Source of the DNA: Escherichia coli | Lineage (GTDB): Bacteria; Pseudomonadota; Gammaproteobacteria; Enterobacterales; Enterobacteriaceae | DNA: 5,656 nucleotides | Assembly (NCBI RefSeq): GCF_003334765.1 | Contig: NZ_QOWT01000063.1 | Strand: one strand, 5' to 3' | Shown here: positions 126-5,656 of the stretch, piece after piece | Position numbering within the stretch: the first letter of the stretch is position 1 | Layout of the letters: every line of letters starts with the position of its first letter | The notes under the pieces: model-generated | The model's input: the letters and a program-made list of their open reading frames with translations, nothing else | Databases searched by the model: none | What the model was told of the DNA's origin: nothing | Made by a program: the position numbers and the translations under genes

Positions 126-1277
126 TTATCTGGAATCGATTTGGCTGTTCTGCCTGGTTGCCACCAAATCATGGTACGCCTGCTCAATCATTTCATTCAG
201 CAGTTTTTTTGGGAGGACACCACGACTTCGGGCAATACTTTCAAGCTGTTTGTGGATTTTTCCGGACAGTTTCAGAGGGACGGAACCATCAGCACGTTCA
301 TCACGCCTTTTTTGTTGCTCCCGGGCACTTTTCAGCTCATCAAGAAGAATCGCTTTATGCTGAATCCTGGGGGCCTGGAAGGAGACCTGCGTAAACTTCG
401 CTCTGTTCCGTCTGGGATTACTTTCCAGTAAAAACTGTACCTGTTGCTCATTCCAGCCCTCCCAGTTATCAAACGTGGCGCAAGCAAACCAGTATTTCTG
501 CTCCGGGGTAAGGGGATTCAGCGGGGTTCCCACACACCGGACCTGCATGGCGTTCCATAACCAGTCACACTGTTCACTGTCCCTGCTGTCCACCCACGAA
601 AAGGGGGAGGGGTAATCATTGTTTATGCTGGCCCATTCAGAGAATACTGAGTTGATAATCGTCCTCGTAGCCTCTGGTCCGGATTTCAGCAGGTAACTGG
701 AGCAGAACCATATAATTTCACGGTAGATTTTATCCGGATGCACGGTGCGCATCGGCTTTTCTCTGGGACCGGCAATCTTCGGTTGCGATGGAAACCCCGT
801 GGCAAACCGCAGATGTTCCGGGGGCATTCCTGAACGTTTTTCAGGAATGGGTGTGAGTCCTGCGTTTCTGGTCTTTTCCGCTTGTCCGGTATTGCCTCCG
901 GCCGGAGTGTTGTCGGGAGTATCTTCCGGAGGCGAGGTGTTTTCATTAGTTGGGGGAACAACAGCAGAACTGTCCATCTCCGGAATGGGTTGAGGGGCAT
1001 AATCACTGTGGTAGCCAGGGGAAAGCGTTAAGTCCCGAAGGGTGACATCAGGTTCCGGGCAGTGAGTGCCACCGGGAGTGAACGGGAGTTGTTGCTTTTG
1101 GGAGAAAAATGTATTGTGAATGCGGGTATACAGCTGGAACAGAAAAAAATAAGATGCCCGTGGTTCTTTTTTTAACCACTGTGTATATTCCTCTATGGCA
1201 CCGAGCTGTTGTTTGTGCCGTTTTACAGCATCGATATACGGACAGCTGGTGCAGATATCATCCAGTTCCTTTCCCAC
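126..1277 (-). CDS. Hypothetical modular protein (383 aa from GTG 1277; 387 aa if GTG 1289), with a C-terminal ribbon-helix-helix-like motif
   Basis: This 1164-nt open frame is by far the longest in the window. There is no ATG in the first 104 codons. GTG at 1277-1275 is preceded by GAGGTG (1287-1282), and stop codons lie in frame upstream of 1289. The translation shows an N-terminal ~70 aa with CTSC, then a Pro/Thr/Asn/Glu/Gly-rich low-complexity stretch (about aa 95-185, nt 734-1007). A Trp-rich segment follows (8 W between about aa 194 and 280), then a basic stretch QQKRRDERAD. The end reads VPLKLSGKIHKQLESIARSRGVLPKKLLNEMIEQAYHDL, which has a strand-helix-helix pattern. I recognise no family. 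Confidence 0.8.
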   Translation of the reverse strand: MGKELDDICTSCPYIDAVKRHKQQLGAIEEYTQWLKKEPRASYFFLFQLYTRIHNTFFSQKQQLPFTPGGTHCPEPDVTLRDLTLSPGYHSDYAPQPIPEMDSSAVVPPTNENTSPPEDTPDNTPAGGNTGQAEKTRNAGLTPIPEKRSGMPPEHLRFATGFPSQPKIAGPREKPMRTVHPDKIYREIIWFCSSYLLKSGPEATRTIINSVFSEWASINNDYPSPFSWVDSRDSEQCDWLWNAMQVRCVGTPLNPLTPEQKYWFACATFDNWEGWNEQQVQFLLESNPRRNRAKFTQVSFQAPRIQHKAILLDELKSAREQQKRRDERADGSVPLKLSGKIHKQLESIARSRGVLPKKLLNEMIEQAYHDLVATRQNSQIDSR

Positions 1278-1311
1278 AATACACCTCACCTGCTTTTCTC
1301 ACATTTGCAGA

Positions 1312-1354
1312 TTTTAAAAAAGCAAACAAAAACCTCCGTACATGATGTACAGAA
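1312..1354 (-). promoter_or_regulatory. Palindrome GTACAT-N-ATGTAC with a downstream T-tract: a weak intrinsic terminator/attenuator or an operator in the leader of the 387-aa ORF
   Basis: The minus strand reads TTCTGTAC-ATCAT-GTACGGAG (plus 1334-1354), an 8 bp stem including 2 G-U pairs. It is followed by GTTTTTGTTTGCTTTTTT (plus 1333-1316). The core GTACATGATGTAC (1339-1351) is a perfect 6+6 palindrome. It ends about 35-45 nt upstream of the GTG starts, which leaves no room for a separate promoter. Confidence 0.35.
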
Positions 1355-1388
1355 CAATCTACCAGGTAGTGGCGTCAGAAAACCTCCG
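1329..1388. repeat. 10-bp direct repeat AAAACCTCCG, two copies exactly 50 bp apart
   Basis: Copies lie at 1329-1338 and 1379-1388 (minus strand CGGAGGTTTT). The first copy forms the 3' arm of the palindrome/terminator-like hairpin. Similarity does not extend beyond about 11 nt. Confidence 0.6.
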
Positions 1389-1663
1389 GGCCGCCTGCAC
1401 TTTCCGGAATGCGCCGGTTATGAAAAACCGGAAATTCAGTCTCTGTTGTAAGATGTACCCTCTGATACTACGTTTTCTCTGTGTATTTAACTCACTGTAT
1501 TTATTGTCTTTTTAAGCTTGACTGATATTCTCCGGTCATAGTGTGCCGGATACACATCCCGTAAACTTCTCATTTTTATATAAAAATACCTGCACTCTCT
1601 TCAGCGCATCTGTCTCCTTTAAGTAAAAAATGTTTTTACGTATTGCTGTAAATTCATTTTAAA

Positions 1664-1966
1664 TCAGTATATTACCTTGATATTGCTGTCTCCTGGTTTG
1701 ATGCGTAATCGTTCTGCCTTTCTGGATGATTCTGGTGCTTCCGGGTGCATTCTCCTCTGCACATGCAACAGTTCGTCATCGCCACGCTCCCAAAAAGCAT
1801 ATAAAAACGAATCGAATTTGATATTTTTTTCAATCGTTTTTCATAGGAATTTCGTAGGGTATTCTCCGCTATAACCTCCATATTTGCTGTCTTTTTCTTC
1901 ATAAATCGTATGCAATGTAGCCTGTCTGTCAAGACCTCTTCTCTGCTGTTGAGGAGACGATCTCAT
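1664..1966 (-). pseudogene. Possible small gene or pseudogene; reading frame ambiguous (101-codon frame with one internal TGA, overlapping the 86-codon open frame 1672-1932)
   Basis: The frame from ATG 1966 reads MRSSPQQQRRGLDRQATLHTIYEEKDSKYGGYSGEYPTKFL, then TGA at 1843-1841. It continues KTIEKNIKFDSFLYAFWERGDDELLHVQRRMHPEAPESSRKAERLRIKPGDSNIKVIY, with a stop at 1666-1664. This frame is protein-like and has a higher first-position G content than the alternative. The ORF-track frame (TTG 1932, first ATG 1902) has no stop but gives a Cys-rich, odd peptide. I recognise no homology for either frame. Confidence 0.3.
1905..1932 (-). promoter_or_regulatory. Sigma70-like promoter candidate firing leftward
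   Basis: The minus strand reads TTGACA (1932-1927), a 16-nt spacer, then TACGAT (1910-1905). The -35 is perfect and the -10 matches 4 of 6. The predicted start is near 1897. The element lies inside the interrupted ORF, so it may be fortuitous. Confidence 0.35.
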
Positions 1967-2407
1967 TTTTGGTCTTTTCCGGGAGAGAGGCTGTCAGATG
2001 AGCGAGCCGGATATACTGTCAGAGGTACACCCCGTAGCAGACCTGTGCTCCCATTTCCGCGATCCGGAACCAACAACACCCTACGGTTAATACCATTTGA
2101 AGCGTCAGGTACTGCAGGAAGTTCCCCCCTGCGCGGACATCGGTTCCTGCCGACATCTCACAATACGGCCAGACTGTCATGCAGTAACACCCGCATGCGG
2201 TCTGCGGTTTTAAGCGCACTCTCCCGTTTTCAGTGCACCGATAATGCGTCATAGTAAGTCTGGGGGAAGTTACGGAATGCCTGTTAAGTGGTGCCGTGGG
2301 TGGAGACAGCTTACTTTTCTACAGCAACTGCAGTCATTCAGGATGATCAGGAGATATTCTGTCAATGTCACGATCCTGCCATTTTCGTACCCGCTAAGAT
2401 ACTTCCG

Positions 2408-2566
2408 TTACTGATGCTGTCCGCTTTTCACCATTTCATCCTCACTGACAGGCGTTGCGTTTTGGGTCATCACCACAGCTTTACGTTTCTCTTTTAACCG
2501 GTAACGCTCTCCTTTGATATTCAGCGTGGTTGAGTGATGCAGCAGTCAATCCAGGAGCGCTGTTGT
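2408..2566 (-). pseudogene. istB: C-terminal fragment of the IS21-family helper ATPase IstB, carrying an in-frame nonsense codon
   Basis: The minus-strand translation is TTALLD*LLHHSTTLNIKGERYRLKEKRKAVVMTQNATPVSEDEMVKSGQHQ*. It contains the IstB C-terminal signature LDRLLHH...I.G.SYRLK.K. TGA at 2548-2546 sits where the Arg codon should be. The stop TAA is at 2410-2408. About 200 N-terminal codons are missing. Confidence 0.75.
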
Positions 2567-2871
2567 CCGGCAACCACCATATCAACTTCTTCCCGGGTGT
2601 GGCGGAGAGGTGGTATCCTGGCTGAGTTTCGAAGCGAACCGTTCTTTTTGACGGGCGCATTTTACGTCCGGGCTGAATGTAGTAACGCGGCATGGAACGT
2701 CGGCCCGTATACCATTGCCTTAATCTCCGCAAAGATAACCTCGTCATTCCGGACATTCTCTGCCAGGCATATGTCGATGTAATCCATAAACGATTTCAGC
2801 TTACCCCTTTTGTTGTGGCCAGTCTTTCTGGCTGGCGGTTCAGGGGATGTTTTCTGGTTATCGTGTACCAC
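2560..2871 (-). pseudogene. istA: N-terminal fragment of the IS21-family transposase IstA (IS100-like), with two frameshifts and truncated by deletion
   Basis: Three successive minus-strand frames give recognisable IstA sequence. The first reads SPEPPARKTGHNKRGKLKSFMDYIDICLAENVRNDEVIFAEIKAMVYGP (to 2701). The second reads RSMPRYYIQPGRKMRPSKRTVRFETQPGYHLS (2699-2604). The third reads HTREEVDMVVAGQQ (2601-2560). These are collinear with about aa 40-140 of IS100 IstA as I remember it (YPEPPARKTRHKMVKLKPFMDYIDMRLAENVWNSEVIFAEIKAMGYTGGRSMLRYYIQPKRKMRPSKRTVRFETQPGYQLQHDWGEVEVEVAGQ). Upstream of 2871 the HTH region is too degraded to read. Confidence 0.8.
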
Positions 2872-3590
2872 AAAGCAGGGATATTGCCCCGATAGTCACA
2901 TTTCAGATTGATCGCGGTCTGAAGATGTGGCACTGAGGTAACGTGCTGGTGTCACTGGTATTGCTGAAGTTATGGTTTTTCGGGGTCAGGTGAGCCTGTT
3001 GTGTGTATGCTTTTTGTTCAGGTCAGAGGGGGACTGTGTGGACAGCGGCTTTTGTCTCCGGGCATTCACGCCTGAACGATGAATGCGATTTTCAGCAATA
3101 TTTGTCTTTGTGACACTCTCTGGTTGAGAAGCTAATGCGCGCCCCTGTTTCCACAGAGAATGAGGCTTGCCATCAGCCGAAACATCAGTATTCCACGCCA
3201 TACAGACGGCGCCTGACCATGTGCTGATGCAGGTAAAATGTTTCACTACAACTGTTCGGGTTGCTATGCAACGAAACAGCGATTCTCACGATCTTTAACT
3301 GCAACGTTTTTCCGCCTGAAAGCTGACTGCCTCCTGCTGAGGTGGGAGGCTATGATTCAGTGCGTTTATAGTCTCCGGGGTATGCATGTACCGGAGCATA
3401 CCATTTCTGGTGGATAACAAGCCGGCACATTCAGACTGCAGTGAAGATGGAGGCACCTGGTTGTGAAGAACGTTTCTGCCCGTGGCTGCTTCGCATCATC
3501 AATGGTATTCATACCCGCTCAGAAATGACCGGGTGCTGAAGCCCTCCGTTATCGCGCAGTATAATGACGTATATGATCTGTGGACGAGTG

Positions 3591-3615
3591 AGCGGCGTGC
3601 CTGATGTACGCCGCT
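3591..3615. other. GC-rich hairpin (8-bp stem); possible plus-strand terminator or RNA-stability element
   Basis: AGCGGCGT (3591-3598) pairs with ACGCCGCT (3608-3615) around a 9-nt loop. On the plus strand it is followed by ATTACTGTATTTTA, which is only moderately U-rich. There is no U-tract on the minus strand. Confidence 0.3.
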
Positions 3616-3629
3616 ATTACTGTATTTTA

Positions 3630-3663
3630 CCACAGGGCTGGTTTTCTGCTGCCAGCCCTGTGG
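3630..3663 (-). terminator. Perfect 12-bp hairpin 10 nt after the stop of the 200-aa ORF; likely transcript end or stabiliser, but it lacks a canonical U-tract
   Basis: CCACAGGGCTGG (3630-3641) pairs with CCAGCCCTGTGG (3652-3663) around a 10-nt loop. On the minus strand it is followed by TAAAATACAGTAATA, which is A/U-rich but not a T-run. Confidence 0.45.
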
Positions 3664-3673
3664 TTCTCAGACA

Positions 3674-4276
3674 TCAACTGTGAGCGGCATCAACCGATGT
3701 ACGGTATGCCATAAGCACGTACTGATCCATCAGATTTGTCAGTGGTTCACTCTGACCCTGACGTGCAATGATCCATTGCTCCAGATCTTTTTCTGATTTG
3801 TGTTTCAGGTTTTTCGTCCAGTCGTCAAGGCTGTTTCCGGTCATTAAGTCAAGCCAGCAGAGCCAGACCAGTTTGAGACGTAACTCCGTGCCGCCAAACT
3901 GACGGAAGAGGCTGATCAGTTTGTTTGCCAGAGAATGTTGCTTCAGGCGCTCACATTCAGACAGCAGGATCCCTTCCAGCATCGGATGATGAACCAGCAG
4001 GTGTTCGCTGGTGCATAAATTCACCACCAGATCATCATCCAGGGACGGGGAGCTCCGTTTGTCCGGACCATAAATCAGCCGGTGCAGACTCTGGGGAACG
4101 ATGGCAATCTCCGGTTTTTCGCCATTGAATGACACCCACCCGGGCGTCAGATTATGGAAATAGTAGATATTCGGATGACACACGCCCCATGATACGGCGT
4201 GCCGGGTGAAGCCGGTCAGCCATTTCTGGTAGTTTTCATGGAGCAGCTCGTAACGGGTCTGATACTGTTGTTTCAT
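3674..4276 (-). CDS. Hypothetical protein (200 aa), co-oriented with and downstream of the AlpA-family gene
   Basis: The open frame is 618 nt. The GTG at 4291 and the ATG at 4282 sit on or too close to the SD. GAGGAA (4289-4284) lies 7 nt upstream of the ATG at 4276, giving MKQQYQTRYELLHENYQKW.... The stop TGA is at 3676-3674. By position I expected a YagK/YfjJ (inovirus Gp2-like) protein. The sequence lacks the HYH-type motif I associate with that family, so I leave it unassigned. Confidence 0.8.
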   Translation of the reverse strand: MKQQYQTRYELLHENYQKWLTGFTRHAVSWGVCHPNIYYFHNLTPGWVSFNGEKPEIAIVPQSLHRLIYGPDKRSSPSLDDDLVVNLCTSEHLLVHHPMLEGILLSECERLKQHSLANKLISLFRQFGGTELRLKLVWLCWLDLMTGNSLDDWTKNLKHKSEKDLEQWIIARQGQSEPLTNLMDQYVLMAYRTSVDAAHS

Positions 4277-4369: not shown

Positions 4370-4576
4370 TTACAGACGGGACTGTGCAATACGCGCCTGC
4401 AGCCAGGCTTCCACTTCACTTTTCAGCCAGCGGGAGCTGCGCCCCATTTTGATGGGCGCAGGAAAGCCCCCATCTTTGATGAGTTTGTCAAACCACTTAT
4501 CGGTTAGGCCGGTCAGTTGAGTGATAAACGCCATGTCGACCATCTGGTCATCCATCAGCGAAACTGGGGTAGCCAT
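4370..4576 (-). CDS. alpA: AlpA-family (phage/island) transcriptional regulator, 68 aa
   Basis: The translation is MATPVSLMDDQMVDMAFITQLTGLTDKWFDKLIKDGGFPAPIKMGRSSRWLKSEVEAWLQARIAQSRL. It fits the AlpA/Phage_AlpA pattern: an HTH, then G.FP.PIK.G, then W...E.E.W. GGAGGAA (4590-4584) lies 7 nt upstream of the ATG at 4576. The ORF track's 135-aa version starts at a GTG with no SD and adds a non-family extension. The stop TAA is at 4372-4370. Confidence 0.9.
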   Translation of the reverse strand: MATPVSLMDDQMVDMAFITQLTGLTDKWFDKLIKDGGFPAPIKMGRSSRWLKSEVEAWLQARIAQSRL

Positions 4577-5656
4577 GAGAATGTTCCTCCGGATGTTGTT
4601 AAACCAGCCGGTGTGGTCATGAAAACAGCGCGCCACCTTCACCGGCATAACAACCGGGGAGAAACGTAAAAAATAATCGGGAATGCGGCTGTCCGGAGAT
4701 AAACGGGGGGATTGCGATGGCAGAGCCGTAGCGGAATCCCGGAGGGGGGTGTTGCGAAAAGATGCTTCCGCACGCACGCGCGATAAAGAGGGGATAGTTT
4801 TCGTGAGGACAGGGAGAGAAGCAGGCGTTCTGATAATTGCAGAGTTGTTTTCGGAGGTGGTTACAGTGAGTCAGCCCGTTCCTGGCGAGCAGGAGACTGA
4901 TATCACCGATGGGATAAGGTTGTCTGATTGGTATTATAAATATAAGAAGTCATCAGAGAGTAACGTAAAGGATTTGCCAGAATAACCTAAGAGAGTAAAT
5001 CTCTCCGGTAACAGAGCGCTGTGAAGCATTCTGTATCAGAGTGCAGATACATGAACGCTGATGCGTAAAATCAGCAGTGACACGCCAGCTCCCCCTATGC
5101 CCATTCCTGTATAAGACATGAACTGAGTGTATTAATGCTTCTGCCCTGAGACTGAGCCGGTGAGTGAGGGGCTGAGAAATCCCTCTTGACACAGCTCTAA
5201 CCAGAAATACTTCCCCGGTTGTTGCGGTGCGTCCGGATCCCCGATAACGGAACACTAAGGCTGTATTGCGGGACACCGGGTAAGTAGCAGCCCGTAAGGC
5301 GTTCTGTCAACGCCAGAAAAAATGATTTCCCACACGCGTTATAGACTCACTCCTGTGGACCTGGAAGCCCGTAACTCTGCGGTTGCCCACTGACTGACGG
5401 AACTGACCGCAAATTTTACGAGTGCGTGCTGGGCTTCAGTCTGGTCACCTGAGCGTTCGGTAACGGAGGCGCGGGCGGTAATAGGCTGATTTTCAGGTAT
5501 TACCGGCTTACAGCGTGTGGTTGATATTGAGGGGCTGTGAGTTTCGCGTATTTGTCAGAAACCCAGACGAGTTTTCCTGTATGGGACGAAATAAGGCAGC
5601 GGCAATACCTGGAAAAATTTAATATGGTATGAAGGAGAACCTGTCGGTTACGCTTA

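Follow-up and report, generated by a model that had tools for sequence, protein, structure and literature searches.

What occupies the 2.4 kb of an Escherichia coli genomic island that lie between two hypothetical genes and hold hardly any open reading frame (ORF)? The window analyzed here is a stretch of 5,656 nucleotides (nt) from contig NZ_QOWT01000063.1. On its minus strand it carries alpA, a hypothetical gene of 200 amino acids (aa), the ORF-poor zone (1290 to 3673), a second hypothetical gene of 383 or 387 aa (here called X), and the end of a GTPase gene (Table 1). An original prediction had placed this zone in a cargo slot and proposed that it could be decayed cargo or could encode noncoding RNAs or small proteins. 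Our analysis indicates that it is probably a composite noncoding spacer that arose as the X/GTPase operon and the alpA/200-aa module became adjacent in head-to-tail orientation. Read along the minus strand, the spacer would begin with the 3′ flank of the 200-aa gene (3673 to 3366), where two strong hairpins probably end the alpA/200-aa transcript. It would continue as unconstrained filler (3365 to 1950) containing an old, deleted, and truncated IS21 copy that trapped further insertion sequence (IS) elements. A conserved sigma-70 promoter (1932 to 1905) would then start a leader of about 600 nt, and the leader transcript would run into X and on into the GTPase gene and downstream cargo. The leader itself would act in regulation, either by attenuation or as a target of H-NS/Hha-type silencing. 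This explanation is largely ordinary; newly noted is the predicted promoter, conserved and unannotated, with its long leader upstream of the X/GTPase operon.

The zone has the open-frame content of random sequence

The scarcity of ORFs is real: between X and the 200-aa gene, the longest start-to-stop ORF has 114 codons (1910 to 2254, plus strand). The longest stop-to-stop frame in 1290 to 3673 has 135 codons, compared with 117 ± 24 in 1,000 shuffles of the same 2,384 bases, and 80% of the shuffles gave a value no higher than the observed one. Because its ORF content equals random expectation, the zone behaves as noncoding DNA. The scarcity had been called unusual, which holds against normal bacterial coding density but not against shuffled sequence, which matches it. 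Short ORFs, said to be abundant, are as numerous as chance predicts.

The rest of the zone had been described as lacking recognizable coding content, and protein-family, DNA, plasmid, and phage searches bore this out. Six-frame scans of Pfam and NCBIfam, with stop codons masked as the letter X, matched IstB alone. Comparison of 1200 to 3750 by tblastx and word-7 blastn with 37 related loci in the canonical arrangement (described below) gave no match, and distant blastn against plasmid and phage collections returned only island copies and IS21. The whole window, on both strands, had no match in Rfam 15 at an E value of ≤1, and scans for tRNA, tmRNA, and tandem repeats found none.

The zone had also been described as rich in stable hairpins, but it proved no more structured than the genes around it. 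Minimum free energy (MFE) z scores, computed in 120-nt windows, averaged −0.36 on each strand of the gap, compared with −0.29 and −0.50 in flanking coding DNA; the sole folding outlier in the gap was at 3561 to 3680 (z = −7.9 and −6.0). Structured noncoding RNAs are disfavored by the lack of an Rfam match, of excess folding energy, and of compensatory changes. Conserved small proteins are not supported either: variable columns of a six-way alignment showed no phase bias or codon periodicity, all ORFs spanning 1792 are disrupted by a polymorphic 2-nt indel, and a search of 1.84 billion representatives found no homologs outside the island.

A predicted promoter and a long leader precede X

The best promoter-like site between 1100 and 3800 is a predicted sigma-70-type promoter on the minus strand, which matches the consensus at 10 of 12 positions and from which transcription would start near 1897. 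Neither hexamer varied in any of the 12 diverged variants in which the upstream DNA is retained, whereas substitutions occur in the spacer and flanks. Of the 16 positions of the spacer, GACAGGCTACATTGCA, 11 were invariant in the seven variants of the first comparison. The core, defined as the first 100 nt or so of the putative transcript, is about 75 to 81% identical in the lineage of L051, L064, and L087 (L numbers denote the compared loci), and in L051 homology to the window ends at 1949, just upstream of the −35 hexamer. No second promoter-like site was found on the minus strand between 1900 and 1278. Since none lies closer to the start of X, the predicted transcript would have an AT-rich leader of about 600 nt (1897 to 1278). 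Some 670 bp of the DNA that the original prediction left unexplained would be the promoter and leader of the neighboring operon.

In all, the leader carries three weak terminator-like hairpins (1803 to 1841, 1608 to 1591, and 1354 to 1334). The segment from 1290 to 2400 co-occurs with X (2,093 versus 2,097 genomes), 1278 to 1949 accompanies X in about 2,090 E. coli genomes, and the leader at 1278 to 1791 has an identity similar to that of the X coding sequence. A regulatory function for the leader is the most likely one. Two known mechanisms would fit it: silencing of an AT-rich leader by H-NS/Hha and attenuation or antitermination. Relevant to the first is an Hha-family gene or pseudogene that these islands have next to alpA. 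An RfaH ops element (GGCGGTAGnnTG) was considered and rejected, since the four sites with two mismatches compare with 3.7 expected. Similar promoter-like sites also lie about 500 nt upstream of an X-type gene on the minus strand of two unrelated island variants, L007 (3561 to 3533, TGAACA-17-TATGAT) and L014 (3488 to 3460, TGAACA-17-TATATT), so such elements may commonly have an X/GTPase operon with a long leader.

The form of antitermination closest to this arrangement is that of Pseudomonas aeruginosa, in which AlpA binds an element between −35 and −10 and polymerase then bypasses intrinsic terminators before the first gene (PMC7969949). With this precedent and with an AlpA-family gene in the same element (4370 to 4576), one could imagine an AlpA-type (lambda-Q-like) antitermination switch for the X/GTPase/cargo operon, with the core serving both for loading and as the first terminator, a model that we consider decidedly unlikely. 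AlpA, encoded 2.4 kb upstream, would load onto RNA polymerase at the promoter, and polymerase would then read through the hairpins at 1803 to 1841, 1591 to 1608, and 1334 to 1354, a step that we consider decidedly unlikely too. That the strong promoter would give only a ~100-nt RNA unless the island's AlpA carries polymerase through the three leader terminators seems quite improbable. The partly conserved spacer and the three hairpins between promoter and X are what such a switch would have. However, the P. aeruginosa motif GGGACGN5GGTA (PMC7969949) is absent from the spacer. In addition, the terminators are weak, the promoter motif has no second copy in 29.6 kb of island, and no promoter-terminator pair was found upstream of the equivalent gene in the canonical loci L010 and L014. 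The role of E. coli AlpA as an activator of integrase expression also speaks against the switch. If it existed, it would turn on the GTPase and defense-cargo operon of CP4-44-type islands and would extend P. aeruginosa-type AlpA antitermination to a very common enterobacterial island family.

A separate observation concerns alpA. In canonical L010 (7579 to 7592) and L014 (3571 to 3589, plus strand), a terminator-like hairpin with a T-run (GAAGGTCAACCTTC and TGGAGGTCAATGACCTTCA, respectively) lies about 100 nt upstream of alpA on the alpA strand, which points to a terminator in the leader of alpA as well.

The promoter-proximal core is the best-kept part of the gap

Diverged copies of the gap (L046, L049, and L051) were recovered through X homologs. 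Identity at 1949 to 1795 was 80.6% for L051 and 96.8% for L046, compared with about 60% and 88.6%, respectively, in the rest of the leader. In the six-way alignment, variable columns made up 15.6% of 1651 to 2030, 21% of the X coding sequence, 23.5% of 1290 to 1650, 30% of 2031 to 2359, and 38% of the IS21 relic, and indels were concentrated in 2031 to 2848. The best-kept part of the gap was the same segment of about 150 to 380 nt in three of four independent comparisons. The only piece that appears clearly constrained is about 150 nt long and would comprise the promoter and the first ~100 transcribed nt.

Several points weigh against this account of the gap. The putative promoter was called from a 10-of-12 consensus match backed by conservation. 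A 600-nt leader is unusually long, and the scan may have missed a weaker promoter nearer to X. In comparison with L003, the core and its flanks do not differ in the core's favor, and in comparison with L049 and L051 its conservation does not exceed that of the third codon positions of X. Since the islands are mosaic, the high identity of 1651 to 2030 could partly reflect recombination rather than selection. As to coding content, a pseudo-protein query concatenated from all 41 stop-free pieces of at least 30 aa matched nothing in a collection of 5.8 billion proteins, but it also missed the ORF of strain 536 annotated beneath it by the Prokaryotic Genome Annotation Pipeline (PGAP). This search may therefore be uninformative and is not counted as a negative.

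The block of highest conservation spans the −35 hexamer to the U-tract. This is the extent expected if the ~150-nt core (1945 to 1792, minus strand) were an independent small-RNA gene, with an RNA of about 95 to 105 nt running from the promoter at 1932 to 1905 to the hairpin and U-tract at 1803 to 1841 and acting in trans or in cis. We regard such a gene as unlikely. The hairpin and its U-rich tail are kept in all good-quality variants (free energy of −7 to −13 kcal/mol), 98% of alignment cells at its paired positions can pair, and three one-sided changes (such as U·G to U-A and GA to AG) leave the pairing intact. However, the hairpin is weak (three G-C pairs, a 12-nt loop, and about −8 kcal/mol), L003 breaks a C-G pair, and none of the 13 pairs changes on both sides, in a covariation test whose power is low because there are only about six to eight independent variants. 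A metagenome scan with the core motif yielded 82 loci with 22 distinct core sequences (most at least 94% identical, one 92%, and two of the L051 lineage about 75%) and added no compensatory change. The core folds no more stably than shuffled sequence (MFE z = −0.4), no Rfam family matches it, conservation in L046 and L049 extends 140 nt past the hairpin, and the promoter is the only one predicted for the downstream gene. Profiles of the core and of 1960 to 1290, searched with nhmmer against all loci, matched X-type islands only. The hairpin and U-tract could be an attenuator or could end a short RNA.

The core also contains the start of a small ORF (ATG at 1881), and a small protein or leader peptide of 33 to 69 aa has to be weighed as its functional product. 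Every variant retains the ATG and the first ~29 codons, and five substitutions at 1861 to 1873 are spaced by three, although this spacing fits a plus-strand frame equally well. After about codon 29 the frame changes with the 2-nt insertion polymorphic at 1792, so that the ORF has 33 to 35 codons in lineages with the insertion or 69 to 75 codons otherwise, with unrelated tails. Within codons 9 to 19, the one substitution is nonsynonymous, which points to constraint at the nucleotide level; in comparison with L051, 4 codons changed synonymously and 9 nonsynonymously. The ORF has no Shine-Dalgarno sequence. A HMMER search with the 69-aa product against 1.84 billion representatives returned only near-identical E. 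coli ORF calls and chimeric frames of 174 to 190 aa. A functional peptide is thus very improbable; the small ORF is probably not a functional protein, and the indel, the substitutions, the missing Shine-Dalgarno sequence, and the lack of relatives lead us to read the core as a promoter and regulatory 5′ leader. Three metagenome or metagenome-assembled-genome contigs (L050, L052, and L053) were left out of the frame and indel arguments, because they differ from the window mainly by single-base changes in homopolymer length (A/T runs), which are typical of long-read assembly error. An Hha-like remnant at 1795 to 1850, suspected by eye from an "IEKN" resemblance, was rejected, with no Pfam HHA match at an E value of ≤1.

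An IS21 relic lies between filler segments

The IS21-family remnant noted originally is real and measures 489 bp, about one-fifth of the zone. Its IstB fragment also matches Pfam PF01695 (E value, 3e-6) and NCBIfam PRK09183 (3e-8), and PGAP labels the relic as pseudogenes (the IstA part as "IS21 family transposase, frameshifted, incomplete"). The relic keeps 489 of the ~2,131 bp of IS21; about 1.6 kb is missing, and with it the start of istA and the second terminal repeat. Judged by these losses, it is nonfunctional and cannot transpose. The outer truncation point is identical in L007, whose flanks are only ~83% identical to those of the window and whose internal deletion differs. Since both lineages have this truncation point, the insertion and truncation are old. 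In L003, the internal deletion of the window is also present, with further loss.

Later insertions have struck the relic repeatedly. An IS100 lies at 2813 to 2816 in 13C1065T, an IS100-type element at 2711 to 2712 in strain 536 and L050, and an IS66-family element at 2754 to 2762 in L053. With at least three independent insertions within about 100 bp, the relic acts as an IS trap, and since insertions and deletions have been tolerated here time and again, the region is unlikely to contain anything essential. Loci with insertions in 2700 to 2820 are L002, L005, L050, and L053.

The filler on either side of the relic is less stable than the leader. Between 2031 and 2359, 30% of columns vary, identity is 77 to 86%, and there are five to nine gap openings, including a 43-nt indel; the ~80 nt at 1950 to 2030 are still 91 to 93% identical in L003, L046, and L049. 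The whole of 1950 to 2359 is missing from L051, which has unrelated DNA of 56% GC instead. Of the second segment, 2849 to 3365, sister lineages retain only short collinear pieces (2849 to 2906, 3089 to 3128, and 3197 to 3257), as pairwise blastn comparison of the gap variants showed. L003, L006, L007, L046, and L049 have lost the filler or have other DNA in its place, and the 1.56-kb filler of L051 matches no other locus.

The filler, perhaps with more of the zone, might represent protein-coding cargo genes decayed beyond recognition, an origin that we consider possible but doubtful. Both segments are fast evolving, indel rich, and lineage specific, and L007 and L051 hold different, unrelated DNA at the same position, as a variable slot would. 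Frames of 174 to 190 codons are also open in some assemblies in which TGA reads TGG. On the other side, there is no protein-family, tblastx, plasmid, or phage match, the variable columns lack codon periodicity, the long frames change phase between variants, and the position is not a cargo slot in canonical elements. The description of the zone as heavily decayed cargo therefore stands in part: both segments are unconstrained and deletion prone, with 30% variable columns compared with 16 to 24% elsewhere, but because no intact ancestor of any kind was found, "cargo" is unproven.

The long frames themselves run across ~1675 to 2250 on the minus strand, where TGA codons of the window read TGG in P0142, P0144, and P0146; three TGA/TGG differences in one stretch are curious. 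The phase and N terminus of these frames differ between variants, and they look like gene-caller chimeras.

The gap coincides with an inverted alpA module

The sampled loci comprised contigs of E. coli, Klebsiella, and Yersinia in addition to 31 loci from other species. In every sampled stretch that includes both modules, the canonical order is GTPase and X divergent from alpA, the 200-aa gene, and Gp2, with a spacer of 0.5 to 0.7 kb between X and alpA. In the window lineage, the alpA/200-aa pair has the opposite orientation with respect to the GTPase gene and lies 2.4 kb from X. The gap is therefore a rearrangement junction rather than the cargo slot of the element. The cargo-slot proposal is not borne out by the 31 other-species loci and the canonical E. 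coli loci, in which alpA directly adjoins X; their cargo is found on the far sides of the GTPase gene and of the zinc-ribbon genes. All sister islands of the window type in E. coli also have an ORF-poor gap, with mutually unrelated filler and lengths of 1.2 kb in strain 042 (L006), 2.0 kb in SC492 (L003), 2.6 kb in L007, and 2.2 kb in L051. The inversion may have been IS mediated, but the other junction of the inverted module showed no second IS21 copy.

The ~300 bp next to the 200-aa gene are the only part of the gap common to most sister islands. This 3′ flank evolves faster than the gene, with 70 to 78% identity at 3569 to 3366 compared with 86 to 89% in the coding sequence, and it is not recognizable in L051. 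Its two hairpins (3591 to 3663) are confined to the window lineage; elsewhere their place is taken by another short palindrome. The hairpins are likely to be the end, or a stabilizing structure, of the alpA/200-aa transcript, although no clear U-tract follows them. Identity as a repetitive extragenic palindrome or a miniature inverted-repeat transposable element was rejected, since they are single copy per genome.

Puzzling at first sight, this gap of about 2,000 E. coli genomes consists largely of IS debris and decaying filler and should not be searched for hidden genes. The predicted promoter and leader offer a concrete place to study cargo control, whether by H-NS/Hha, attenuation, or AlpA, in the widespread CP4-44-type islands.

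Island context and neighboring genes

Many E. coli strains have a chromosomal island with 100% identity to the window. In SW4848, the island adjoins yeeA, the position of prophage CP4-44 in K-12, and encodes CbtA/CbeA, JAB/RadC-like, antirestriction, DUF932, GTPase, AlpA-family, inovirus-Gp2-family, and zinc-ribbon proteins, with dynamin/RdcB/patatin cargo beyond the GTPase gene. To the left of the window, L001 (6587 to 10952) carries genes for a dynamin-family protein, an RdcB-family protein, and a patatin-like phospholipase, which looks like a defense-type module; the corresponding slots of other variants of the island are occupied by Ag43, BREX, or different cargo. A literature search turned up nothing specific on the gap or its island type.

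X has no Pfam domain and evolves almost neutrally, its first and third codon positions having diverged equally (84.3% versus 86.7% identity against L049, for example). Its homologs in L046, L049, and L051 have 72 to 77% aa identity at about 86% DNA identity. The gene is frameshifted in E. coli 536. Sister strains start it at an upstream ATG, which in the window is followed by TGA (126 to 1303). A ribbon-helix-helix resemblance of its C terminus is apparent by eye only.

The 200-aa protein belongs to a family found across Enterobacterales with 47 to 64% identity and many invariant residues; it has no Pfam domain, and its gene always follows alpA. A paralog of about 30% identity adjoins it in a Yersinia locus (L011, 7190 to 7717). 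An AlphaFold2 model built from 27 sequences was mostly helical, with a mean predicted local distance difference test score of 58, too poor for a fold search. Beside alpA, in the place of the Hha/YmoA-family remnant of the window, sister islands have an intact or frameshifted Hha-like gene or pseudogene.

Table 1. Features of the window, in order of position
Feature	Position	Strand	Remarks
GTPase gene, end	1-42	minus	
X, 383/387-aa hypothetical gene	126-1277/1289	minus	
Rest of putative 5′ leader of X operon	1278-1791	minus	AT-rich, GC 33-43%
Terminator-like hairpin	1354-1334	minus	T-run 1333-1316 just before X start codon
Terminator-like hairpin	1608-1591	minus	
Small ORF, ATG 1881	1672-1881	minus	69 codons in the window
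Conserved promoter-proximal core, putatively transcribed, ~100 nt	1792-1897	minus	Most conserved part of gap
AU-rich hairpin, then U-rich tail to 1792	1803-1841	minus	Ends core
Predicted sigma-70-type promoter	1905-1932	minus	−35 TTGACA 1932-1927, 16-nt spacer, −10 TACGAT 1910-1905
Filler	1950-2359	none	Between promoter and IS21 relic; no protein-family or DNA match
IS21-family relic	2360-2848	minus	blastn, 86-90% identity to IS21 of pBS228
Terminal inverted repeat TGTCAATGTCACGAT	2360-2374	minus	Compare IS21 TGTCAACGCCACGAT
IstB C-terminal fragment, residues 214-266	2566-2408	minus	tblastn E value, 5e-24
Internal ~1.4-kb deletion junction	~2562-2565	minus	
IstA fragment, residues 41-134	2844-2560	minus	tblastn E value, 1e-16; 50% identity; frameshifted; truncated at ~codon 40
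Filler	2849-3365	none	Complete in window's own lineage only; no protein-family or DNA match
3′ flank of 200-aa gene	3366-3673	minus	Homologous at 69-83% in most island lineages
Hairpin, 8-bp stem	3591-3615	minus	
Hairpin, 12- to 13-bp perfect stem	3630-3663	minus	Directly after 200-aa stop codon
200-aa hypothetical gene	3674-4276	minus	
alpA	4370-4576	minus	Pfam Phage_AlpA PF05930, E value 1.5e-5, above curated cutoff
Hha/YmoA-family gene remnant	5316-5447	plus	Upstream of alpA; 58% aa identity to intact 49-aa gene of L003

Comparison with known systems

The relic resembles IS21 (istA/istB; IncP plasmids R68.45 and pBS228) in its 86 to 90% DNA identity, its one terminal repeat, and its IstB and IstA fragments. 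It differs in holding only 489 of ~2,131 bp, with a ~1.4-kb internal deletion and without the istA 5′ end and the second terminal repeat. Its surroundings resemble the intergenic "IS graveyards" of E. coli and Yersinia pathogenicity islands: an old relic has been hit twice by IS100, at different sites, and by an IS66-family element, and lineage-specific deletions erode the DNA around it. There is no notable difference from such regions, and the pattern is ordinary for unconstrained island DNA.

The predicted promoter and leader are comparable to the long AT-rich leaders or attenuators of horizontally acquired operons and to the AlpA/lambda-Q arrangement of promoter-proximal terminators in P. 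aeruginosa alpBCDE (PMC7969949): terminator-like hairpins separate a conserved promoter from the first gene, and the element encodes an AlpA-family regulator. In contrast to alpBCDE, the window lacks a similar AlpA-binding motif and its terminators are weak; the comparison is no more than an analogy. The island as a whole is of the K-12 CP4-44/CP4-57 type, with the same gene set around the window (alpA, YagK/YfjJ Gp2-like, YeeP/YfjP GTPase, antirestriction, RadC, and CbtA/CbeA) and the same position next to yeeA. The alpA/200-aa pair of such islands is divergent from the X/GTPase operon across 0.5 to 0.7 kb in other Enterobacterales, whereas in the window it is inverted and 2.4 kb away.

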